Assembly: GCF_054482525.1 (NCBI RefSeq)
Contig: NZ_CM137006.1
Strand: one strand, 5' to 3'
Length of the DNA: 64,000 nucleotides
Below the pieces are notes generated by a model, which saw only the letters and a list, made by a program, of their open reading frames with translations, had not been told where the DNA came from and ran no database searches. A program made the position numbers and the translations under genes. Position 1 is the first letter of the stretch. Each line of letters starts with the position of its first letter. Below, one piece after another: positions 9,535 through 53,725 of the stretch.

Positions 9535-10269
9535 TTAAAGATGCATTAACTGGCGGAATTCTTTAACTTTGCTGCGGCTGACCGGCACTTCAAAATCCAG
9601 ATCTTTCAGCCGCAGAATATAGGTGTTATTAAACCACGGTTCGATCTCGCGGATTTTGTTCAGATTGACACAAAATGAGCGATGGCAGCGGAAAAAATGC
9701 GACGGCGGCAGCTTGCTGCAAAACTCGGTAATGTTCATCGGCATTACGTAGGATTCACGCCGCGTATAGACAAAGGTCATTTTCTCGTGCGCTTCGGCGT
9801 AATAGATATCGTTAATTGGCGTGACAATGATTCGCTCATCTTTCACCAGATTAATGGTGTCATTCTCACGCGTTACCGTCGTGGCAGGCGTACTGCTGGT
9901 CTGCTGTTGTTGCCAGGCCGCTTCCAGTTTTTGCAGCATCCCGGTAATGCGTGACTCCTGATACGGTTTGAGAATGTAGTCAAACGCTTCCAGTTCAAAT
10001 GCTTCTACCGCATGTTCTTTCCACGCGGTGATGAACACAATAAACGGTTTATGGGCGAACTGGCTGATGTTTTGCGCCAGCAACACGCCATCCAGCGACG
10101 GAATATTGATATCCAGAAAAATGGCGTCGACGCGGTTATGCTGCAAAAACTTCAACACGTCCAGACCGTCGTCAAAGGTGCCGACAATCTCCATCTGGCT
10201 GTGCTCTTTAATTAGCCAGCTCAGTTCCTGTTGTGCCAGGAATTCGTCTTCAACAATGATGACTTTCAC
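9535..10269 (-). CDS. ypdB: LytTR-family response regulator of the YpdA/YpdB two-component system
   Basis: Receiver domain (KVIIVEDEFLAQ...) plus LytTR output domain; track ORF extends to 10287, but the likely start is the GTG giving MKVIIVEDE (244 aa). Confidence 0.85.
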   Translation of the reverse strand: MKVIIVEDEFLAQQELSWLIKEHSQMEIVGTFDDGLDVLKFLQHNRVDAIFLDINIPSLDGVLLAQNISQFAHKPFIVFITAWKEHAVEAFELEAFDYILKPYQESRITGMLQKLEAAWQQQQTSSTPATTVTRENDTINLVKDERIIVTPINDIYYAEAHEKMTFVYTRRESYVMPMNITEFCSKLPPSHFFRCHRSFCVNLNKIREIEPWFNNTYILRLKDLDFEVPVSRSKVKEFRQLMHL

Positions 10270-16250: not shown

Positions 16251-16883
16251 ATGAAACGTTTAATTATGGCTACGATGGTCACAGCAGTTCTGGCATCTTC
16301 AACTGTATGGGCTGCTGATAATGCACCGGTAGCGGCACAACAGCAAACTCAGCAAGTTCAGCAAACCCAGAAAACGGCAGCAGCAGAGCGTATCTCTGAA
16401 CAAGGTTTATATGCGATGCGTGACGTGCAGGTAGCGCGCCTGGCTCTGTTTCATGGCGATCCGGAAAAGGCAAAAGAACTGACCAATGAAGCTTCAGCTT
16501 TGTTGTCAGATGACAGTACCGAATGGGCAAAGTTCGCTAAGCCAGGTAAAAAGACCAATGTCAATGATGACCAATATATTGTCATTAATGCATCTGTCGG
16601 AATTTCTGAGAGTTATGTAGCGACACCCGAAAAAGAAGCCGCGATAAAAATTGCCAACGAAAAAATGGCGAAAGGGGATAAAAAGGGCGCAATGGAAGAG
16701 CTGCGCCTGGCCGGTGTTGGCGTAATGGAAAACCAATATCTGATGCCGCTCAAACAGACTCGTAATGCACTTGCTGATGCGCAGAAACTGCTTGATAAAA
16801 AGCAATACTACGAGGCAAACCTGGCGCTTAAAGGTGCGGAAGATGGAATCATCGTCGATAGCGAAGCTCTGTTTGTGAACTAA
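16251..16883 (+). CDS. yfdX: YfdX periplasmic protein (EvgA-induced)
   Basis: 210 aa with signal peptide. Confidence 0.9.
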
Positions 16884-16939
16884 CGCTGACAGGCAGTATA
16901 TTGAGGTAAAGGATTTAACTCCCTCCAGCCGACAATTTT

Positions 16940-16972
16940 TTATGACCACAATACGACAGGTTGTGGTCATAA
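16940..16972 (+). terminator. Inverted repeat after yfdX (possible terminator)
   Basis: ttatgaccacaa / ttgtggtcataa 12-bp perfect arms; tail only weakly T-rich. Confidence 0.35.
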
Positions 16973-17126
16973 AATTATTTGGCGCTCGCGGTTCTATAAA
17001 CTCGCATTTTATCTTCCTCAAAGTAAACCGCAATAATCCCGTGTCATCACAAATCATTTATTATGTTATGTTTTATGGTACGCTTTAAAAGGCGTAATCA
17101 TACCCTTACTTGTAAATCACCGGCGC

Positions 17127-17144
17127 TTCTTACAGTTGTAAGAA
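17127..17144. promoter_or_regulatory. Perfect EvgA-box palindrome upstream of frc
   Basis: TTCTTACA-GT-TGTAAGAA, a perfect 18-bp inverted repeat about 250 bp upstream of the frc start. Confidence 0.6.
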
Positions 17145-17395
17145 TAACATCACAAATGTCGCGGCTCTCTCTGATTACCGCGAACCAATATTTATCATAT
17201 TCTTCTTTTCGTCCTCACTACTTACCATGCAGAAAGGAATTGGAAGTGGCGATGAAATGATTTTCAGCACTTGATACAGGAATTTAAAAATATCGAGTGC
17301 AGCTACGACGATATTTTGCGGATTATTTATAGAGGGCGTTATGCCTTAAATAAACGCTAAATTAACATATATTTAATTAACTAATAGGTATTGCT

Positions 17396-18646
17396 ATGTC
17401 AACTCCACTTCAAGGAATTAAAGTTCTCGATTTCACCGGTGTGCAATCTGGCCCATCTTGTACTCAAATGCTGGCCTGGTTTGGCGCTGACGTCATTAAA
17501 ATTGAACGTCCCGGCGTTGGTGACGTAACGCGTCACCAGCTGCGAGATATTCCTGATATCGATGCGCTTTACTTCACCATGCTTAACAGTAACAAACGTT
17601 CTATTGAATTAAATACCAAAACAGCGGAAGGCAAAGAGGTAATGGAAAAGCTGATCCGCGAAGCTGATATCTTAGTCGAGAACTTTCATCCTGGGGCCAT
17701 TGATCACATGGGCTTCACCTGGGAGCATATTCAAGAAATCAATCCACGTCTGATTTTTGGTTCGATCAAAGGGTTTGATGAGTGTTCGCCTTATGTGAAT
17801 GTAAAAGCCTATGAAAACGTTGCTCAGGCAGCGGGTGGCGCGGCATCCACTACGGGTTTTTGGGACGGTCCGCCGCTGGTAAGCGCTGCAGCGTTGGGTG
17901 ACAGCAACACCGGAATGCATTTACTGATCGGTTTACTTGCTGCTTTGCTGCATCGCGAAAAAACGGGGCGTGGGCAACGAGTCACCATGTCAATGCAGGA
18001 TGCCGTATTGAACCTTTGCCGCGTGAAATTACGCGACCAGCAGCGTCTCGATAAATTGGGTTATCTGGAAGAATACCCGCAGTATCCGAATGGCACATTT
18101 GGTGATGCAGTTCCCCGCGGAGGTAATGCGGGGGGTGGCGGTCAGCCTGGCTGGATCCTGAAATGTAAAGGCTGGGAAACCGATCCTAACGCCTATATTT
18201 ATTTCACTATTCAGGAGCAAAACTGGGAAAACACCTGTAAAGCCATCGGCAAACCAGATTGGATTACCGATCCGGCATACAGTACAGCCCATGCCCGACA
18301 GCCACATATTTTCGATATTTTTGCTGAAATCGAAAAATACACTGTCACTATTGATAAACATGAAGCGGTGGCCTATTTGACTCAGTTTGATATTCCTTGT
18401 GCACCGGTTTTAAGTATGAAAGAAATTTCACTTGATCCCTCTTTGCGCCAAAGTGGCAGTGTTGTTGAAGTGGAACAACCGTTGCGTGGAAAATATCTGA
18501 CAGTTGGTTGTCCAATGAAATTCTCTGCCTTTACGCCGGATATTAAAGCTGCGCCGCTATTAGGTGAACATACCGCTGCTGTATTGCAGGAGCTGGGTTA
18601 TAGCGACGATGAAATTGCTGCAATGAAGCAAAACCACGCCATCTGA
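17396..18646 (+). CDS. frc: Formyl-CoA:oxalate CoA-transferase
   Basis: 416 aa, family III CoA-transferase. Confidence 0.93.
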
Positions 18647-18699
18647 TATTAACGGGGGCTTCTGGCTCCCAATTTATAAAAATTTCGAGGTTATTAATC

Positions 18700-26279: not shown

Positions 26280-26894
26280 TTAGCCGATTTTGTTACGTTG
26301 TGCGAATGTGTAAAGATCCATCAGTGATTTACATTCTAATTTTTCCATCAGGCGACTTTTATAAGTGCTGACAGTTTTGTTGCTGATGAACATTTTTTCA
26401 GCAATGTCATTATTATCCTTGCCATCAAGAATATACCGCATGACACTAATTTCTTGTTTCGATAAGGAGTCGAGTTTTTGCTGGTCGGACGTTAAACTTC
26501 CAACAAACCGGTTGAGAGAGAAGGGGAAATAGCAGTAGCCATTTTTTGCAGCTTCAATAGCTGCAATGATATTGTTCATGCCTTCTTTTTTACTCACGAA
26601 ACCATTAGCGCCAGCATCAGCACAATGTTTCCCGTAAAAATGGTCATTTTTAGCGGAGACAATAATAATAATTCCGCTATATTGGCGCTTTCTCAGCGTT
26701 TCTAACACCTGGATACCGTTAACTCCGGGGATATCGACATCAATGATGACGATATCAGGCTTAAGTGTTTCCACCCGCTGAACGGCGCTTCCGCCTTCAG
26801 TCAACTCCGCTAAGATTTCAATATCGTTTTTGATCAATAAATTACGAATTGCTGCGATAGCAAGAGGATGGTCATCAATAATTATTGCGTTCAT
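26280..26894 (-). CDS. evgA: Response regulator EvgA (NarL/FixJ family)
   Basis: 204 aa; receiver domain plus LuxR-type HTH. Confidence 0.96.
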   Translation of the reverse strand: MNAIIIDDHPLAIAAIRNLLIKNDIEILAELTEGGSAVQRVETLKPDIVIIDVDIPGVNGIQVLETLRKRQYSGIIIIVSAKNDHFYGKHCADAGANGFVSKKEGMNNIIAAIEAAKNGYCYFPFSLNRFVGSLTSDQQKLDSLSKQEISVMRYILDGKDNNDIAEKMFISNKTVSTYKSRLMEKLECKSLMDLYTFAQRNKIG

Positions 26895-43339: not shown

Positions 43340-44650
43340 ATGGGTCAGGTTTTACCGCTGGTTACCCGCCAGGGCGATCGTATCGCCATTGTTAGCGGTT
43401 TACGTACGCCTTTTGCCCGCCAGGCGACGGCTTTTCATGGCATTCCCGCGGTTGATTTAGGGAAGATGGTGGTAGGCGAACTGCTGGCACGCAGCGAAAT
43501 TCCCGCCGAAGTGATTGAACAACTGGTTTTTGGTCAGGTCGTACAAATGCCGGAAGCCCCCAACATTGCGCGTGAAATTGTTCTCGGTACTGGAATGAAT
43601 GTGCATACCGATGCTTACAGCGTCAGCCGCGCTTGCGCTACCAGTTTCCAGGCGGTTGCAAACGTCGCAGAAAGCCTGATGGCGGGAACTATTCGCGCGG
43701 GGATTGCCGGTGGGGCAGATTCCTCTTCCGTATTGCCAATTGGCGTCAGTAAAAAACTGGCGCGCGTGCTGGTTGATGTCAACAAAGCCCGCACAATGAG
43801 CCAGCGCCTGAAACTCTTCTCTCGCCTGCGTTTGCGCGACTTAATGCCCGTACCACCTGCGGTAGCAGAATATTCTACCGGCTTGCGGATGGGCGACACC
43901 GCAGAGCAAATGGCGAAAACCTACGGCATCACCCGAGAACAGCAAGATGCATTAGCGCACCGTTCGCATCAGCGAGCCGCTCAGGCGTGGTCAGACGGTA
44001 AACTCAAAGAAGAGGTGATGACTGCCTTTATCCCTCCTTATAAACAACCGCTTGTCGAAGACAACAATATTCGCGGTAATTCCTCGCTTGCCGATTACGC
44101 AAAGCTGCGCCCGGCGTTTGATCGCAAACACGGAACGGTAACGGCGGCAAACAGTACGCCGCTGACCGATGGCGCGGCAGCGGTGATCCTGATGACTGAA
44201 TCCCGGGCGAAAGAATTAGGGCTGGTGCCGCTGGGGTATCTGCGCAGCTACGCATTTACTGCGATTGATGTCTGGCAGGACATGTTGCTCGGTCCAGCCT
44301 GGTCAACACCGCTGGCGCTGGAGCGTGCCGGTTTGACGATGAGCGATCTGACATTGATCGATATGCACGAAGCCTTTGCAGCTCAGACGCTGGCGAATAT
44401 TCAGTTGCTGGGTAGTGAACGTTTTGCTCGTGATGTACTGGGGCGTGCACATGCCACTGGCGAAGTGGACGATAGCAAATTTAACGTGCTTGGCGGTTCG
44501 ATTGCTTACGGGCATCCCTTCGCGGCGACCGGCGCACGGATGATTACCCAGACATTGCATGAACTTCGCCGTCGCGGCGGTGGATTTGGTTTAGTGACCG
44601 CCTGTGCTGCCGGTGGGCTTGGCGCGGCAATGGTTGTGGAGGCGGAATAA
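43340..44650 (+). CDS. fadI: 3-ketoacyl-CoA thiolase (anaerobic beta-oxidation)
   Basis: 436 aa thiolase. Confidence 0.95.
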
Positions 44651-46794
44651 TGGAAATGGCATCAGCGTTTACCCTTAATGTCCGTCTGGACAACATTGCT
44701 GTTATCACCATCGACGTACCGGGTGAGAAAATGAATACCCTGAAGGCGGAGTTTGCCTCGCAGGTGCGCGCCATTATTAAGCAACTCCGTGAAAACAAAG
44801 AGTTGCGCGGCGTGGTGTTTATCTCCGCGAAACCAGACAACTTCATTGCTGGCGCAGACATCAACATGATCGCCAACTGCAAAACGGCACAAGAAGCGGA
44901 AGCACTGGCGCGGCAGGGTCAACAGTTAATGGCGGAGATTCATGCTTTGCCCGTTCCGGTTATCGCGGCTATTCATGGCGCTTGCCTGGGCGGTGGGCTG
45001 GAGTTGGCGCTGGCGTGCCACGGTCGCATGTGTACTGACGATCCTAAAACGGTGCTCGGTTTGCCTGAAGTACAACTTGGATTATTACCCGGTTCAGGCG
45101 GCACCCAGCGTTTACCGCGCCTGATAGGTGTCAGCACAGCATTAGAGATGATCCTCACCGGAAAACAACTTCGGGCGAAACAGGCATTAAAGCTGGGGCT
45201 GGTGGATGACGTTGTTCCGCAATCCATTTTACTGGAAGCCGCTGTTGAGCTGGCAAAGCAGGATCGTCCATCTTCACGCCCTCTACCTGTACGCGAGCGT
45301 ATTCTGGCGGGGCCGTTAGGTCGTGCGCTGCTGTTCAAAATGGTCGGCAAGAAAACAGAACACAAAACTCAGGGTAACTATCCGGCGACAGAACGCATCC
45401 TGGAGGTTGTCGAAACGGGATTAGCGCAGGGCACCAGTAGCGGCTATGACGCTGAAGCCCGTGCTTTTGGCGAACTGGCGATGACGCCGCAATCGCAGGC
45501 TTTGCGTAGTATCTTTTTTGCCAGTACGGAAGTGAAGAAAGATCCTGGCAGTGACGCGCCGCCTGCGCCATTAAACAGCGTGGGAATTTTAGGTGGTGGC
45601 TTGATGGGCGGCGGTATTGCTTACGTCACTGCTTGTAAAGCGGGGCTTCCGGTCAGAATTAAAGATATCAACCCGCAGGGCATAAATCATGCGCTGAAGT
45701 ACAGTTGGGATCAGCTGGAGGGCAAAGTTCGCCGTCGTCATCTCAAAGCCAGCGAACGTGACAGACAGCTGGCATTAATCTCCGGAACGACGGACTATCG
45801 CGGCTTTGCCCATCGCGATCTGATTATTGAAGCGGTGTTTGAAAATCTCGAATTAAAACAACAAATGGTAGCGGAAGTTGAGCAAAATTGCGCCGCTCAT
45901 ACCATCTTTGCTTCGAATACGTCATCTTTACCGATTGGTGATATCGCCGCTCACGCTACGCGACCTGAGCAAGTTATTGGCCTGCATTTCTTCAGTCCGG
46001 TGGAAAAAATGCCGCTGGTGGAGATTATTCCTCATGCGGGGACATCGGCGCAAACCATCGCTACCACAGTAAAACTGGCGAAGAAACAGGGTAAAACGCC
46101 AATTGTCGTGCGTGACAAAGCCGGGTTTTACGTCAATCGCATTTTAGCGCCTTACATTAATGAAGCTATCCGCATGTTGACCGAAGGTGAACGGGTAGAG
46201 CACATTGATGCCGCGCTGGTGAAATTTGGTTTTCCGGTAGGCCCAATCCAACTTTTGGATGAGGTAGGAATCGACACCGGGACTAAAATTATTCCTGTAC
46301 TGGAAGCCGCTTATGGAGAACGTTTTAGCGCGCCTGCAAATGTTGTTTCTTCAATTTTGAACGACGATCGCAAAGGCAGAAAAAATGGCCGGGGTTTCTA
46401 TCTTTATGGTCAGAAAGGGCGTAAAAGCAAAAAACAGGTCGATCCCGCCATTTACCCGCTCATTGGCGCACAAGGGCAGGGGCGACTCTCCGCACCGCAG
46501 GTAGCTGAACGGTGTGTGATGTTGATGCTGAATGAAGCAGTACGTTGTCTGGACGAGCAGGTTATCCGTAGCGTGCGTGACGGAGATATTGGCGCGGTAT
46601 TTGGCATTGGTTTTCCGCCATTTCTCGGTGGTCCGTTCCGCTACATCGATTCTCTCGGTGCGGGTGAAGTGGTTGCAATAATGCAACGACTGGCCACGCA
46701 GTATGGTTCCCGTTTTACCCCTTGCGAGCGTTTAGTCGAGATGAGCAAGCGTGGGGAAAGTTTTTGGAAAACAACTGCAACTGACCTGCAATAA
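44650..46794 (+). CDS. fadJ: Fatty-acid oxidation complex alpha subunit (enoyl-CoA hydratase / 3-hydroxyacyl-CoA dehydrogenase)
   Basis: 714 aa; crotonase fold then NAD-binding dehydrogenase domain; start overlaps fadI stop. Confidence 0.95.
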
Positions 46795-46996: not shown

Positions 46997-47482
46997 ATGC
47001 AAGTTTTTATCATGCGTCACGGCGACGCAGCCCTCGATGCCGCCAGTGATTCGGTTCGTCCTCTGACTACTAACGGTTGTGACGAATCTCGCCTGATGGC
47101 GAACTGGCTGAAAGGTCAAAAAGTGGAAATCGAACGCGTTCTGGTGAGCCCGTTCCTGCGAGCCGAGCAAACACTGGAAGAAGTAGGGGATTGTCTGAAC
47201 CTGCCTTCCAGTGCAGAAGTTCTGCCGGAGTTAACACCCTGCGGCGATGTTGGTCTGGTCAGTGCCTATTTGCAGGCGTTGACCAATGAAGGTGTTGCTT
47301 CGGTACTGGTGATCTCCCACTTACCCTTAGTCGGGTATCTGGTTGCCGAGTTATGTCCGGGCGAAACGCCGCCTATGTTTACCACCTCGGCCATTGCCAG
47401 CGTAACGCTTGATGAAAGCGGAAACGGCACATTCAATTGGCAGATGAGCCCATGTAATCTGAAGATGGCAAAGGCGATTTAA
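46997..47482 (+). CDS. sixA: Phosphohistidine phosphatase SixA
   Basis: 161 aa; N-terminal RHG motif (MQVFIMRHGDA). Confidence 0.93.
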   Translation: MQVFIMRHGDAALDAASDSVRPLTTNGCDESRLMANWLKGQKVEIERVLVSPFLRAEQTLEEVGDCLNLPSSAEVLPELTPCGDVGLVSAYLQALTNEGVASVLVISHLPLVGYLVAELCPGETPPMFTTSAIASVTLDESGNGTFNWQMSPCNLKMAKAI

Positions 47483-47494
47483 TACGCATGCACA

Positions 47495-47529
47495 AGGCCC
47501 GCTGGTGTAAGCTATCGGGCCTTTATTTT
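47495..47529 (+). terminator. Rho-independent terminator after sixA
   Basis: aggcccg / cgggcct stem followed by ttatttt. Confidence 0.6.
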
Positions 47530-48141
47530 CTGGCAATGTTGAATTTTTTTAATCTTATTGTACTAACAATGATCCGCTTGTGATCGAATAGTCATAATTT
47601 TATACGGTATGACGCTTTTATTTGTGGAAATTTACATATTGAAAGAAAATTTACTTTTATTCATAAATTATTTTTCTGGAAGCATTTTTAGGTAAATAAT
47701 GACTAAAGTGAAAAATATTATTGGGTCTTGATTTTATATTAATTATAGTGTTTTAATATTATATCGTTGCGAAATTAATATCACAAGATAGTCATTGCCA
47801 TGTGATTGTTTTTGACTTTGATTTATTCACTGTATTTTTGCATTTGCCGTTTTTTTGAACTCATTCTTCATAACTGAGATGAAAAATTTCAGTAATTATT
47901 ATTCCTGCCTATTAATTAAGTATTTCTAACTTTGAATGTTAGAAAATCTAAATTGCGTCAGTCATATTAAAATATCAATATGTTCGGCACGCCAAAGAAT
48001 ATTGATTCAAGGGACCTGTTTTTTCAGGATCTGAAAATATGTTCATTGGCTGGTTAAAAGTCGCTGCAAAAAATTGAAGAAGTTCTGTGTCAATATTTCA
48101 GTTGGCTTATATTCTAATTATTTATGATTTAAGGACAAATA
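47530..48141. promoter_or_regulatory. About 610-bp AT-rich leader upstream of the yfc fimbrial operon
   Basis: Long noncoding AT-rich tract with T/A runs; contains an 8-bp inverted repeat atcaatat...atattgat near 47975-48007. Confidence 0.4.
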
Positions 48142-48708
48142 ATGAGTAAGTTTGTAAAAGCAGCAGTTGCCACGGCAATGCTCATGGGGGCGCTGACTTC
48201 AGCATCAGTCGTTGCCGCAGGGAACAACGGTACAGTGAGATTTTACGGCACAATTGAAGACTCCCCGTGCTCAATTGTTCCTGACGATCATAAACTGGAA
48301 GTGGATATGGGCAGCATCGGTACGGGTTCTTTAACCGGCGGCAAAACAACCACACCAAAAGATTTCCAGATTCGTTTACAGGACTGTAATTTCAATACAG
48401 AAACGACAATGGCTACCACATTCACCGGTAATCCGTACTCCACTAACGCAGATAACTATTCTCTGTCTAACATGGATAATGGAACTGAAATTCCAAACGT
48501 TAGCCTGGTTATCGGTGACCAGCACGGTACAGGTTATGCTCTGGGAGCAGAGATTAAGCAACCTATCGTGAAGGACAGTTCAACGGGAAAAGGCAAGCCT
48601 AAACAAACTCTGAACTTTAAAGCATGGTTAGTGGGTGAAACGGATGCTGTAACACCAACACCGGCACCGTTTGAAACGCTGACGACGTTCCAGATCACGT
48701 ATCTCTAA
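48142..48708 (+). CDS. yfcV: Fimbrial major subunit (chaperone-usher pathway)
   Basis: 188 aa with signal peptide and fimbrial subunit C-terminal beta-strand motif. Confidence 0.88.
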   Translation: MSKFVKAAVATAMLMGALTSASVVAAGNNGTVRFYGTIEDSPCSIVPDDHKLEVDMGSIGTGSLTGGKTTTPKDFQIRLQDCNFNTETTMATTFTGNPYSTNADNYSLSNMDNGTEIPNVSLVIGDQHGTGYALGAEIKQPIVKDSSTGKGKPKQTLNFKAWLVGETDAVTPTPAPFETLTTFQITYL

Positions 48709-48779
48709 TGTATTTCCCCCATAGCTGCAAAGTTATGGGGTTTATAACTACCAAATAACTAAATTATAAAAAATCATGG

Positions 48780-51431
48780 ATGGATACGCCGATGCCAGAA
48801 CATTCTTTTCTCCGTTTACGGGGGCTTTCGTGGTGGATTGCTCTGGCAATTTCTGGAAGTCCATTTAATGCCCTGGCAGACGATACCATTCAGTTTGATG
48901 GCCGATTTCTTGATTTAAAAGGCAATACCAAAATTGATTTGGGCCGTTTTTCGCAAAAAGGCTATGTAGAACCGGGAAAATATAACTTACGCGTTCATGT
49001 AAATAATCAGCCGTTACCTGACGACTACGATATCTACTGGTACGCAACTGAAAACGATCCGAATAAATCATATGCCTGCTTATCGCCAGAGCTGGTTGCC
49101 CAGTTTGGTCTGAAGGAAGATATTGCAAAGAATTTGCAATGGATCCGCGATGGTCAGTGTCTGAATACGGCACTTTTAGCAGGTACAGAAATTAGCGGCG
49201 ATTTAGGCCAGTCTGCACTCCTTGTTTCTGTACCGCAGGCTTATCTGGAATATACCGACAGCGAGTGGGACCCGCCTTCGCGCTGGGATGACGGTATCCC
49301 TGGGCTTATTGCCGATTACAGTATCAACGCGCAAACCCGACATGAAAATGGGGGGGATGACACCAACGACATCAGCGGTAATGGTACGGTCGGCGTTAAC
49401 GTTGGGCCGTGGCGCTTACGAGCTGACTGGCAGAGCGATTATCAGCATACCCGCAGTAACGATGACGGCGACACCGACGATAGCTGTACGCAAAAAAACT
49501 GGGAGTGGAGTCGTTACTACGCCTGGCGCGCCTTGCCGTCATTAAAAGCCAAACTTTCGCTGGGCGAAGATTATCTCAACTCCGATATTTTTGATGGCTT
49601 CAGTTACATTGGCGGCAGCATCAGTACCGATGATCAAATGTTACCGCCAAACCTGCGCGGCTACGCCCCCGATATTTCAGGTGTTGCACACACTACCGCT
49701 AAAGTGACTGTAACCCAAATGGGCCGTGTCATTTACGAAACCCAGGTGCCCGCAGGGCCATTCCGCATTCAGGATATTGGCGATTCCGTCTCTGGCACGC
49801 TGCATGTCCGCATTGAAGAACAAAACGGCCAGGTACAGGAATACGACGTCAGCACGGCGTCCATGCCGTTCCTGACTCGCCCCGGCCAGGTGCGTTACAA
49901 AGTGACAATGGGGCGTCCACAAAACTGGGACCATCAGGTTGCAGGTAGCTTCTTCTCGGGCGGCGAGGCATCGTGGGGGATTGCCAATGGCTGGTCGCTC
50001 TACGGCGGTGCGTTAGCCGATGAAAACTACCAGTCGGCGGCGCTGGGCCTCGGTCGTGACCTGGCGCTGCTAGGCGCGTTAGCGTTTGATGTCACTCACT
50101 CTCGTGTTCAACTCGACGATAACAGCGTGTATGGCAACAAAACGCTGGACGGCAACTCTTATCGCGTCAGCTATGCCAAAGATTTTGATGAACTCAACAG
50201 TCGGGTGACGTTTGCTGGATACCGCTTCTCTGAAAAAAACTACATGACCATGAGCGAGTATCTGGATGCGAACGACGACGACCGGGCGCGCACCGGTAAC
50301 GACAAAGAGATGTATACGGTCACCTATAACCAGAACTTCACGGATGCGCGCGTTTCGGTCTATCTCAATTATTCCCACCATACCTACTGGGATCGCCAGG
50401 ATCAGACCAACTACAACATGATGCTTTCTCATTATTTCAATTTAGGAAGCCTTCGCAACCTGAGCGTTTCTCTGACCGGTTATCGCTACGAATACGATAA
50501 AAGTGCCGACAAGGGTGTTTATCTGTCCTTAAGTTTGCCGTGGGGCGACAACAGCACCATCAGTTACAACGGCAACTATGGCAGCGGTGCCGACAGCAAT
50601 CAGGTGAGCCTGTACCACCGCATTGATGACGCCAGCCACTACACGGTAAGCGCCGGAACCAGCGAAAACCACAGCAGCGTGGATGGCTACTACAGCCACG
50701 ATGGTACTCTGGCAAAAGTGGATCTCAGTGCCAACTACCATGAAGGGCAATACACCTCAGCAGGGATCTCTTTACAGGGCGGGGCAACGTTGACCGCTCA
50801 CGGCGGGGCGCTGCATCGTACACAAAACATGGGCGGTACACGTCTGTTAATCGACGCTGATGGCGTTGCTAATGTGCCGGTTGAAGGTAATGGTTCCGCC
50901 GTTTATACCAACATGTTCGGCAAAGCGGTGGTGGCAGATGTTAATGATTACTACCGCAACCAGGCTTATATCGATTTGAACAAACTGCCGGAAAACGCCG
51001 AAGCCACGAAATCAGTGGTTCAGGCAACGCTGACGGAAGGCGCTATTGGCTACCGTAAATTTGCGGTGATCAGCGGTGAGAAGGCGATGGCAGTGCTGCG
51101 CTTGCAGGATGGCAGCCATCCGCCATTTGGGGCGGAAGTGAAAAACGATAATCAACAACAAGTTGGATTGGTTGATGACGAAGGTAATGTTTATCTGGCA
51201 GGCGTTAAACCGGGTGAACATATGACCGTTTCTTGGGAGGGTGAATCTCACTGCGATATCAGCCTGCCAGACCCGTTACCGAATGACCTGTTCAATGGCT
51301 TGTTGTTGCCATGCCAGCAAAAGGGGGGAAGTTCTCCCGTCATACCGCATGATATTCAACCTGTCATTCAGGAGCAGACACAACAGGTGGCACCAATGGA
51401 ACCGCCGATGTCTGTTTCATCGAACCAATAA
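48780..51431 (+). CDS. yfcU: Fimbrial outer-membrane usher, uninterrupted frame
   Basis: 883 aa single ORF with usher-like domain arrangement. Confidence 0.9.
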   Translation: MDTPMPEHSFLRLRGLSWWIALAISGSPFNALADDTIQFDGRFLDLKGNTKIDLGRFSQKGYVEPGKYNLRVHVNNQPLPDDYDIYWYATENDPNKSYACLSPELVAQFGLKEDIAKNLQWIRDGQCLNTALLAGTEISGDLGQSALLVSVPQAYLEYTDSEWDPPSRWDDGIPGLIADYSINAQTRHENGGDDTNDISGNGTVGVNVGPWRLRADWQSDYQHTRSNDDGDTDDSCTQKNWEWSRYYAWRALPSLKAKLSLGEDYLNSDIFDGFSYIGGSISTDDQMLPPNLRGYAPDISGVAHTTAKVTVTQMGRVIYETQVPAGPFRIQDIGDSVSGTLHVRIEEQNGQVQEYDVSTASMPFLTRPGQVRYKVTMGRPQNWDHQVAGSFFSGGEASWGIANGWSLYGGALADENYQSAALGLGRDLALLGALAFDVTHSRVQLDDNSVYGNKTLDGNSYRVSYAKDFDELNSRVTFAGYRFSEKNYMTMSEYLDANDDDRARTGNDKEMYTVTYNQNFTDARVSVYLNYSHHTYWDRQDQTNYNMMLSHYFNLGSLRNLSVSLTGYRYEYDKSADKGVYLSLSLPWGDNSTISYNGNYGSGADSNQVSLYHRIDDASHYTVSAGTSENHSSVDGYYSHDGTLAKVDLSANYHEGQYTSAGISLQGGATLTAHGGALHRTQNMGGTRLLIDADGVANVPVEGNGSAVYTNMFGKAVVADVNDYYRNQAYIDLNKLPENAEATKSVVQATLTEGAIGYRKFAVISGEKAMAVLRLQDGSHPPFGAEVKNDNQQQVGLVDDEGNVYLAGVKPGEHMTVSWEGESHCDISLPDPLPNDLFNGLLLPCQQKGGSSPVIPHDIQPVIQEQTQQVAPMEPPMSVSSNQ

Positions 51432-51450
51432 CGTGATTAAGGAATGATCC

Positions 51451-52200
51451 ATGATTAAACATCTCTCTGCCAAAACATTGACAACGGTACTGTCGTTGCT
51501 GGCAGCAACGGTAAGTTTTTCTGCCCAGGCGTCAGTAACGCCCGATCGTACCCGGCTGATTTTCAATGAAAGCGATAAATCTATCAGCGTGACGCTGCGT
51601 AATAACGACCCCAAACTGCCTTATCTGGCGCAAAGCTGGATTGAAGATGAAAAGGGCGTCAAGATCAGCTCGCCGCTGGCGGTATTGCCGCCCGTACAGC
51701 GCATTGATGCAATGATGAATGGTCAGGTTAAAATTCAGGGCCTGCCGGATATTCATAAATTACCTGCCGATCGGGAATCGATGTTCTATTTCAACGTGCG
51801 CGAAATTCCGCCGAAATCGAACAAATCCAACACGCTGCAAATCGCCCTCCAGACGCGTATCAAACTTTTCTGGCGACCGAAAGCCCTGGAAAAAACCACT
51901 ACGCAAAACCCGTGGCAGCATAAAGTGACCTTAACCCGCAACGGTCAGGAATTTACCGTCAATAACCCGACGCCGTATTACGTCATTTTCAGTAATGCCA
52001 GCGCACAGAAAAATGGCAATCCGGCAGCCGGTTTCTCGCCAATAGTGATGTCGCCGAAAACCTCTGCACCGCTGAATGTGAAGATGGGGAGTGTGCCGGT
52101 ACTGACCTATGTCAACGACTATGGCGCTCGGATGCCGCTCTTTTTCACCTGCAACGGTAACAGTTGCCAGGTTGATGAAGAGCAGAGCCGCAAAGGCTGA
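51451..52200 (+). CDS. yfcS: Fimbrial periplasmic chaperone (PapD-like)
   Basis: 249 aa with signal peptide. Confidence 0.9.
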   Translation: MIKHLSAKTLTTVLSLLAATVSFSAQASVTPDRTRLIFNESDKSISVTLRNNDPKLPYLAQSWIEDEKGVKISSPLAVLPPVQRIDAMMNGQVKIQGLPDIHKLPADRESMFYFNVREIPPKSNKSNTLQIALQTRIKLFWRPKALEKTTTQNPWQHKVTLTRNGQEFTVNNPTPYYVIFSNASAQKNGNPAAGFSPIVMSPKTSAPLNVKMGSVPVLTYVNDYGARMPLFFTCNGNSCQVDEEQSRKG

Positions 52201-52215
52201 GGCCGGGAGTGTGAG

Positions 52216-52707
52216 ATGAAACGACTACTTTTGGCCGGGCTGGGAGGAGTGCTGCTTACGGGCAGTGCTCTTGCCGGTGAAACGAAAAGTGTGCCATTGA
52301 CATTGCGCGTACTGGTAGACCCACCACCTCCTTGTACTGTAAAAGGCAGTAACGTCGATTTTGGTGATGTGATCATCAAAAAAATCAATGGTACTGAATA
52401 TCGCAAAGATGCAGGTTATACCCTGAACTGTGCCAATAGCCTGAGCGATGACCTTCAGATGCAGTTTAAGGGCACAACCACCACGATCAATGGCGAAACG
52501 GTGTTAAGCACGGGAATTACCGGGTTTGGCATTCGTATTGAAAATGCAGCCGATAACTCTCTGTTTGCGATTGGCGACAATACCTGGACTCCATTTAGCG
52601 TCAGTAGCCAGCCACAACTAAAAGCAGTGCCAGTCAAACAGAATGGCGTGACGCTGACAGGCGCACAGTTTAACGCCAGCATGACAATGGTGGTGGATTA
52701 CCAATGA
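52216..52707 (+). CDS. yfcR: Fimbrial minor subunit
   Basis: 163 aa with signal peptide. Confidence 0.85.
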   Translation: MKRLLLAGLGGVLLTGSALAGETKSVPLTLRVLVDPPPPCTVKGSNVDFGDVIIKKINGTEYRKDAGYTLNCANSLSDDLQMQFKGTTTTINGETVLSTGITGFGIRIENAADNSLFAIGDNTWTPFSVSSQPQLKAVPVKQNGVTLTGAQFNASMTMVVDYQ

Positions 52708-53183
52708 AACGACTCTCGTTAATTTTATTATCCGCTTTTTGCACCATAACGCATGCCGCACCGGAAGATATCACCTTCACGGGTACGCTGATCGAACCTC
52801 CGGTCTGCACCGTCAGCAATGGTGATGATATTGAGATCCAGTTTATCGACGTCATTATCGACAATATTGACGGGGTTAATTACCGCAAAGATGTTCCGTA
52901 CCAGATAACGTGTGACCCTGATATTACCGATGACGCCTGGGTAATGACGCTAACCTGGACCGGTACACAGACCAGCTATAACGATGCGGCGATTCAGACG
53001 GATGTCACGGGATTAGGGATTGAACTCCAGCAAAACGGTCAGCCCTTTAAGCTGAATACCCCGCTTAACGTGACACCCGCCAACCTGCCGAAGTTGAAGG
53101 CCGCACCTGTAAAAGCTTCCGATGCCACGCTGACTGACGGTAACTTTTCCGCTTACGCCACATTGCAGGTGGATTATCAATGA
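52704..53183 (+). CDS. yfcQ: Fimbrial minor subunit
   Basis: 159 aa; overlaps yfcR stop. Confidence 0.85.
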   Translation: MKRLSLILLSAFCTITHAAPEDITFTGTLIEPPVCTVSNGDDIEIQFIDVIIDNIDGVNYRKDVPYQITCDPDITDDAWVMTLTWTGTQTSYNDAAIQTDVTGLGIELQQNGQPFKLNTPLNVTPANLPKLKAAPVKASDATLTDGNFSAYATLQVDYQ

Positions 53184-53725
53184 ACAAACTGAAGAAATAT
53201 CAATGTATCAGGGTGCAAACCCTTCTGTTGGGCGGTGTGCTGGTGCTGGTGAGTCATTCAGCACTGGCAGCTAATAATTTGCATTTTTACGGCAACCTGA
53301 TGAGCAAAACCTGTACTCCGGTGGAACAGGCTGGAACGTTGGCAGAGGTACAGTTTGCTGATATCAGCTACAAAGATTTGATGGTGCGCGGTCAGTCCGA
53401 TCGTGTACCGGTGGTTTTTCGCCTGAAAGATTGCCATGGGCCAGCGCAGTACAGCGTAAAAGTTACCCTGACCGGAACAGAAGACAGTGGACAACCGGGG
53501 TTCCTCGCTCTGGATGGTACCTCCGGCGCACAGGGCGTAGGCATTGGTATGGAAACTACTGATGGTACTGCTGTTGCTATTAATAACACGACGGGGGTGA
53601 CCTTTGTGCTGAATGATGGCAATAACAGTCTTAATTTCAGAGCATGGTTACAGGCAAAAGAGGGGCGTGATGTAACACCCGGTGATTTTACCGCCCAGTT
53701 AACCGCCACGTTTGAGTATATTTAA
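53180..53725 (+). CDS. yfcP: Fimbrial minor subunit
   Basis: 181 aa; overlaps yfcQ stop. Confidence 0.85.
   Translation: MNKLKKYQCIRVQTLLLGGVLVLVSHSALAANNLHFYGNLMSKTCTPVEQAGTLAEVQFADISYKDLMVRGQSDRVPVVFRLKDCHGPAQYSVKVTLTGTEDSGQPGFLALDGTSGAQGVGIGMETTDGTAVAINNTTGVTFVLNDGNNSLNFRAWLQAKEGRDVTPGDFTAQLTATFEYI

Follow-up and report, generated by a model that had tools for sequence, protein, structure and literature searches.

The sequence under study is the intergenic spacer between sixA and yfcV in a 64-kb stretch of DNA, referred to below as the window. On its left side lie fadJ (44650-46794) and the core gene sixA (46997-47482, plus strand), which encodes a phosphohistidine phosphatase and remains 98-99% identical to its K-12 counterpart until near the stop codon. 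The spacer itself spans 659 bp (47483-48141). It is followed on the plus strand by a gene of the yfcV type, specifying a major fimbrial subunit of 188 amino acids (48142-48708; 66% identity to K-12 YfcV), and by the remainder of the yfc operon (48792-54589; 45-81% identity to K-12), which comprises genes for an usher, a chaperone, three minor subunits and an adhesin of the StfH/YfcO family. The usher gene is intact and encodes 883 amino acids. Past the operon, smrB is found on the opposite strand. In the RefSeq annotation of strain PCN033, the sixA-smrB locus has the gene content of a pi-class (Yfc/Stf type) operon; Yfc and Pap have both been assigned to the pi class (PMC3032704). Over the spacer, the window agrees with E. 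coli PCN033 at every position (100% identity); over the 18.7 kb around it, identity is 99.98%, with two mismatches and one 1-bp gap relative to the PCN033 record. Since the differences are so few, and since fadJ, annotated as "frameshifted" in the RefSeq record of PCN033, has an intact 714-codon frame in the window, the latter is either a corrected version of PCN033 or a near-identical strain.

The spacer stands out by its base composition. Its GC content is 28.7% (27.0% for the segment 47530-48141), compared with 48.7% for the window, and it provides the lowest-GC 600-bp tile of the entire 64 kb. Expressed the other way, the AT content is 71.3% across the 659 bp and 51.3% in the window, an excess of the kind that characterises H-NS target regions. 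An earlier note made from the sequence alone had described more than 600 bp of AT-rich DNA with many A/T runs between sixA and yfcV, and this description holds: the spacer contains 21 A/T runs of at least four bases. The position at which that note had the region begin, 47530, is the first base past the sixA terminator. Next in AT-richness within the window is a stretch at 39563-40795 (tiles 40001-40500, 31-33% GC), which carries a 410-codon gene for a "hypothetical protein" between mlaA and fadL. This stretch is probably another H-NS target, because a yfdF/mlaA entry is also present on the K-12 list of promoter islands (see below). A further tile of low GC content (32.8%) lies at about position 26800, sites resembling the H-NS motif are densest in tiles 16801-17860 (5 per tile), and the strongest predicted curvature of the window falls in tiles 17749-18666.

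An intrinsic terminator for sixA occupies positions 47494-47529 on the plus strand and has the form AAGGCCCG-N14-CGGGCCTT followed by TATTTT. The corresponding RNA is predicted to fold into an 8-bp GC-rich stem and an inner 4-bp stem (centroid energy, -18.5 kcal/mol) ahead of the sequence UAUUUU. A GC-rich hairpin at the end of a gene, with a U-run directly after it, is the configuration of a Rho-independent terminator. A terminator scan with an 8-nt loop limit missed this element, whose loop is larger. Hairpins of different sequence are found after sixA in the K-12, O157 and B2 forms of the locus; the values calculated for the various alleles are -18.9, -26.5, -22.1 and -18.8 kcal/mol. Thus, with a hairpin at the same place in every allele and a different sequence in each, the terminator is conserved as a structure.

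The order sixA-yfcV is found in 5425 of 5426 complete E. coli genomes, and at this single locus the spacer exists as at least four deeply diverged alleles. The form present in the window, shared by strains PCN033, 042 and E2348/69, occurs in 634 genomes and measures 659 bp. The K-12 type (about 3073 genomes at 80% coverage or more) measures 680 bp, the O157/O55 type 645 bp, and the B2 type (O18, ST131) 558-565 bp, with about 100 bp missing beside the sixA terminator. Pairwise identity between the forms is 51-63% (about 53% for the PCN033-type spacer against that of K-12), values too low for blastn to link one spacer allele to another. When the window was compared with K-12, identity was 95-99% through fadJ and sixA, dropped within the 200-bp bin containing the stop codon of sixA, ranged between 40 and 53% in the spacer and between 45 and 81% in the operon, and returned to 90-99% from about position 54716. 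Judged by this fall at the sixA stop codon and the recovery some distance downstream, the spacer forms the 5' margin of a hyperdivergent yfc cassette, 7.2 kb long and set at a fixed position in the core genome. The cassette (47483-54715) comprises the spacer and seven genes, is 40-81% identical to K-12, and has sharp boundaries with the sixA and smrB flanks (95-99%). Published data agree with this picture. Yfc has been described as a core-associated fimbria (PMC3559732); in E. coli W, an O157-like pi-type cluster takes the place of the K-12 cluster at sixA-yfcN (PMC3032704); and among E. coli strains dS is 0.57-0.80 for the yfc genes versus 0.08 for sixA (PMC4720273, S2 Table).

Some individual records deserve mention. 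A 2.2-kb contig deposited as "MAG: Collinsella sp." (JAIJJM010000567.1) contains the PCN033-type sixA-yfcV spacer almost unchanged and is most likely a mis-binned E. coli contig. In strain LR-24 (NZ_AP027494.1), which carries the K-12-type allele, an IS1 element lies inside the spacer and could separate its distal part from yfcV. In the B2 strain O18 (NZ_CP007275.1, excerpt 1016-1464), the annotation gives the yfcV homologue as a pseudogene, incomplete and without its C-terminus; therefore, the yfc operon is not intact in every lineage.

Alignment of the alleles revealed three conserved blocks in the 175 bp proximal to yfcV, the rest of the spacer having diverged. These blocks, all on the plus strand, are kept in every E. 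coli allele, the alleles being otherwise 51-56% identical, as well as in E. whittamii, two other Escherichia isolates and Pseudocitrobacter vendiensis. Box A (47967-48002), with the core CACGCCAAAGAATAT at 47988-48002, is a candidate binding site for a regulator. Box B (48040-48059) reads TGTTCATTGGCTGGTTAAAA in the window and TATTCAATGGCTGGGTATAAA in other alleles, and may represent a promoter element or a binding site. Box C (48106-48141) reaches the start codon and includes the Shine-Dalgarno sequence AAGGA (48131-48135) and an invariant TATATT (48108-48113). The latter is a positionally conserved candidate for a proximal -10 motif; no good -35 motif accompanies it, a combination to be expected where a promoter depends on an activator. 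The K-12 allele has an inverted repeat here, matching at 11 of 12 positions and made up of the 3' portion of Box B together with the 5' portion of Box C, GTATAAACATTG ... CAATGTTTATAT (about 9685-9740 of the K-12 excerpt, corresponding to 48053-48113 of the window). The PCN033 allele keeps only a 5-bp complement of this repeat at the RNA level, with two compensatory changes.

In K-12, the spacer is one of 78 "promoter islands" (2453647_489, yfcV/sixA; PMC3661553). Genomic SELEX with the RpoD holoenzyme produced a peak in this spacer, associated with the predicted promoter TTGAAA-17-TATAGT and with an "HNS" flag (PMC3946193), and a peak was also obtained there with the RpoS holoenzyme (PMC5493296). 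The K-12 SELEX promoter is located 383 bp before the K-12 ATG and aligns to positions 47721-47749 of the window, where a candidate distal sigma-70 promoter, TTGGGT-17-TATAGT, is found on the plus strand. The -10 motif is kept at the aligned position and the -35 motif is weaker, TTGGGT versus TTGAAA. If used, this promoter, of which the O157 and B2 alleles show only poor conservation, would generate a leader of about 386 nt. A simple scan for sigma-70 promoters returned 6 sites in the spacer, versus 4.0 ± 2.0 in shuffled sequences, and by this measure did not show the unusually dense, overlapping start signals that define a promoter island.

The earlier note had proposed that the region is a silenced regulatory region of the H-NS type, belonging to a cryptic fimbrial operon, and had named published H-NS ChIP-seq data as the place to look. 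For the K-12 counterpart such data are in agreement: island 2453647_489 is marked as H-NS-bound in both the Kahramanoglou (MG1655) and the Oshima (W3110) data sets (PMC3661553). The coding regions of yfcV and sixA overlap an H-NS-bound region in the ChAP-seq analysis of at least one of the strains K-12, SE11 and SE15 (PMC4720273, S2 Table). Yfc is presented as cryptic, functional and repressed by H-NS in PMC3559732, which cites Korea 2010. Overproduction of TosR in strain CFT073 raises yfcV expression (log2 fold change of 5.2; PMC5956150), as does overproduction of BolA in K-12 (PMC4337573); both effects fit a silent but inducible promoter. The binding data for H-NS and RNA polymerase concern the K-12, SE11 or SE15 alleles, and by homology H-NS would be expected to occupy the PCN033-type spacer as well. 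The high-affinity H-NS nucleation motif TCGATAAATT, which is helpful but not obligatory for H-NS target regions, is not enriched in the spacer: one site with two mismatches (at 47660) was found, close to the window average of 0.9 for tiles of 659 bp. Altogether, homology (an H-NS-bound spacer in K-12, a cryptic Yfc fimbria) and composition support the proposal of the note, and we consider it probable that this DNA controls transcription of the Yfc operon, a pi-class chaperone-usher operon of the core genome, and is silenced by H-NS.

Other features attributed to this DNA fared less well. The promoter region had been described as curved; neither helical phasing nor calculated curvature exceeded that of shuffled sequences, and intrinsic curvature of the spacer was not demonstrated. 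The maximum power of AA/TT phasing (9.5-12 bp) was reached by 51% of the shuffles, and 10.5% of the shuffles were as curved as the spacer in a simple wedge model of our own, which gives this second result the weight of a weak negative. The note had also singled out an 8-bp inverted repeat. This repeat does exist, about 140 bp upstream of yfcV, with its left arm ATCAATAT at 47974-47981 and its right arm ATATTGAT at 47999-48006; the arms are 17 bp apart, lie 136-143 bp before the yfcV ATG and can be extended on neither side. They flank the conserved core of Box A, the last four bases of which are overlapped by the right arm. The special status given to the repeat did not stand. With gaps of 3-50 bp between the arms, the spacer has six pairs of perfect inverted 8-mers, one of them being the sixA terminator, versus 1.9 ± 1.9 in dinucleotide shuffles. 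Among five genomes with the same allele (94-97% identity), only E2348/69 keeps the repeat. The other four read ATCAACAT and/or ATATTATA, without any compensating change, ATATTATA being the form of the right arm in most members of the allele. No repeat is found at this position in the K-12, O157 and B2 alleles. Being at chance level, broken in four of five close relatives and missing from all other alleles, the 8-bp inverted repeat is a chance match and not a functional element.

Invertible switches control some fimbrial operons of the Enterobacterales, such as fim in E. coli and mrp in Proteus. This precedent and the several short inverted repeats of the spacer would speak for a fim-type phase switch, in which the 8-bp repeat or another one flanks a promoter segment flipped by a site-specific recombinase. 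Yet the 8-bp repeat encloses only 17 bp and is not conserved (see above), and the RefSeq annotation lists no recombinase among the 17 features within 9 kb on each side, in line with the statement of the note that no such gene is adjacent. Furthermore, 633 of the 634 genomes carrying this allele show a colinear match at one place, all those listed individually as a single colinear piece, with colinearity defined at 80% coverage or more, so that inversions of less than about 130 bp would escape; no inverted segment was seen in six aligned sequences. Conserved flanking repeats, an adjacent recombinase gene and both orientations among genomes, the marks of a fim-type switch, are thus all missing. 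The note had called such a switch unlikely, and on these data its probability is negligible. Hardly more credible is an epigenetic switch of the Pap type, in which Dam methylation of two GATC sequences within Lrp sites would be set by PapI- and PapB-like proteins. Yfc does share the pi class with Pap (PMC3032704), the spacer has three GATC sites (47571, 47582 and 48028), and TosR, which induces yfcV when overproduced, is a PapB-family regulator. But the sites are 11 bp and 446 bp apart instead of about 102 bp. Nor are they conserved: GATC at 48028 is replaced by GAGC in most sequences of the same allele and does not occur in the B2 alleles, and the other alleles lack the pair 47571/47582. In addition, no papI- or papB-like reading frame or remnant lies in the spacer of any allele or adjacent to the spacer. 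Wrongly spaced and unconserved, the GATC sites were set aside as a Pap-like switch.

The remaining alternatives concern what the spacer might encode or how its transcript might act. A length of 659 bp is considerable for an E. coli spacer, and stop-to-stop frames of 30-71 codons occur across the alleles; these facts could indicate a gene of its own, be it for a small protein, a small RNA or a decayed regulator. However, in a six-frame comparison of five alleles none of the stop-to-stop frames proved to be conserved from one allele to another; those on the minus strand that run across Box B diverge past the conserved DNA block. Pfam searches with the spacer frames gave only noise (one match with E = 0.034, well below cut-off), an Rfam search of the spacer gave no match at E ≤ 1, and RefSeq annotates no feature in the spacer of eleven complete genomes inspected. 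A hidden or decayed reading frame such as a papB-like gene, and likewise a known RNA family, were therefore rejected, and the presence of any gene in the spacer is very unlikely. A mobile-element origin was also dismissed; there was no phage match, and the two "plasmid" matches were to chromosomes (NZ_CP134663.1 and NZ_CP141089.1, 4.9-Mb records of the plasmid collection that are evidently misfiled E. coli chromosomes). Less easily dismissed, although still improbable, is control after initiation, exerted by a long leader that would hold the start codon in a hairpin (48117-48148) and pair Box B (CAAUGGCUG) with yfcV codons 8-10. RNAalifold does predict a weak hairpin with the Shine-Dalgarno sequence in the loop and the AUG in the stem, as well as the pairing of Box B with codons 8-10. 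In 11 sequences, 94.6% of the cells in the RNAalifold helices are paired, compared with 33-55% when the partners are slid; one 5-bp helix has two compensatory pairs; and the putative leader of 405 nt has a better fold than its shuffled versions (z = -2.3). Against this, the structure was scored on the same sequences that yielded it, and most of its pairs are invariant: the conserved structure predicted for the proximal leader has only two pairs that change on both sides, a number equalled by 262 of 500 shuffles, and its covariation term amounts to only -0.67 kcal/mol. Moreover, two of the nine pairs of the long-range helix are broken in the PCN033-type allele, and the hairpin is broken in the B2 alleles without compensation. 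No RfaH ops element was found in the leader.

The reading we favour, transcriptional control of the Yfc operon under H-NS silencing, leads to the following model. Transcription of sixA would end at the hairpin terminator, and the next ~610 bp, owing to their extreme richness in AT, would serve two ends. They would offer RNA polymerase several overlapping, weak promoter-like sites, among them the distal candidate at 47721-47749, with its ~386-nt leader, and the proximal candidate with a -10 motif at 48108-48113. At the same time, they would provide a platform for filaments of H-NS (and StpA), which would keep the operon silent under laboratory conditions. Expression of yfc would then require counter-silencing or activation, probably through the boxes at 47967-48141. 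For the PCN033-type allele, both the promoter presumed to be in use and the role ascribed to the boxes are inferred. More tentatively, the proximal ~175 bp with Boxes A, B and C might constitute a dedicated control module of the Yfc/Stf type, made up of an activator or counter-silencer site, an activator-dependent promoter with the -10 motif TATATT and a weak start-codon hairpin. Selection may have kept such a module, in Pseudocitrobacter as well, even as the operon and the other parts of the spacer drifted apart, down to about 50% identity among four or more E. coli alleles. We regard this last proposition as possible but rather doubtful.

The finding is real but ordinary and already known, the K-12 allele having been catalogued as an H-NS-bound silent promoter island. 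What is new is modest: the spacer is resolved explicitly into its alleles, and three conserved boxes are recognised in its proximal part. With this analysis, neither the inverted repeat nor a phase switch of any kind needs to be considered further. Since only about 175 bp beside yfcV are conserved across very different alleles, promoter dissection and pull-down experiments can focus on this segment, and the boxes could guide the search for a regulator of Yfc. The locus also offers a clear example of a known pattern, the much faster divergence of H-NS-bound loci compared with the DNA around them. The result has little practical value and will not surprise the specialist. The yfcV gene is a widely used marker for uropathogenic E. 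coli.

In the fimS element of type 1 fimbriae, conserved 9-bp repeats flank a 314-bp promoter segment and the recombinase genes fimB and fimE adjoin. The yfc spacer resembles fimS as an AT-rich fimbrial promoter region with inverted repeats, but differs from it in that its repeat flanks 17 bp and is unconserved, no recombinase gene is nearby, and no inverted form occurs among the genomes compared. Other cryptic chaperone-usher operons of E. coli (yad, yeh, ycb/elf, sfm, ybg and yra; Korea et al. 2010, as cited in PMC3559732) and the pef operon of Salmonella (PMC6844306) offer another parallel: they too have a long AT-rich upstream region, are silent in laboratory culture and give functional fimbriae when driven artificially. 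In contrast to these operons, a local regulator gene is neither known nor present at yfc, and the effects of TosR and BolA are seen on overproduction only. The yfc locus is also akin to the cases of H-NS-associated sequence diversification reported by Higashi et al. (2016; PMC4720273), in which yfc is highly divergent and part of an H-NS-bound transcription unit; this divergence matches the sharp cassette boundaries of the window. That study scored coding regions, and the portion of its text that was searched does not describe the spacer, its four or more alleles or the conserved boxes. Finally, K-12 promoter island 2453647_489 (PMC3661553; RpoD SELEX promoter, PMC3946193) occupies the same chromosomal position between the same neighbour genes as the PCN033-type spacer. 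The two differ in sequence (about 53% identity), in the -35 motif of the distal promoter (TTGAAA in K-12, TTGGGT here) and in the usher gene, a pseudogene in K-12 and intact (883 codons) here. They are alike in length (680 versus 659 bp) and GC content (31.9% versus 28.7%), and have in common the proximal boxes, the ribosome-binding site and the -10 motif TATAGT.
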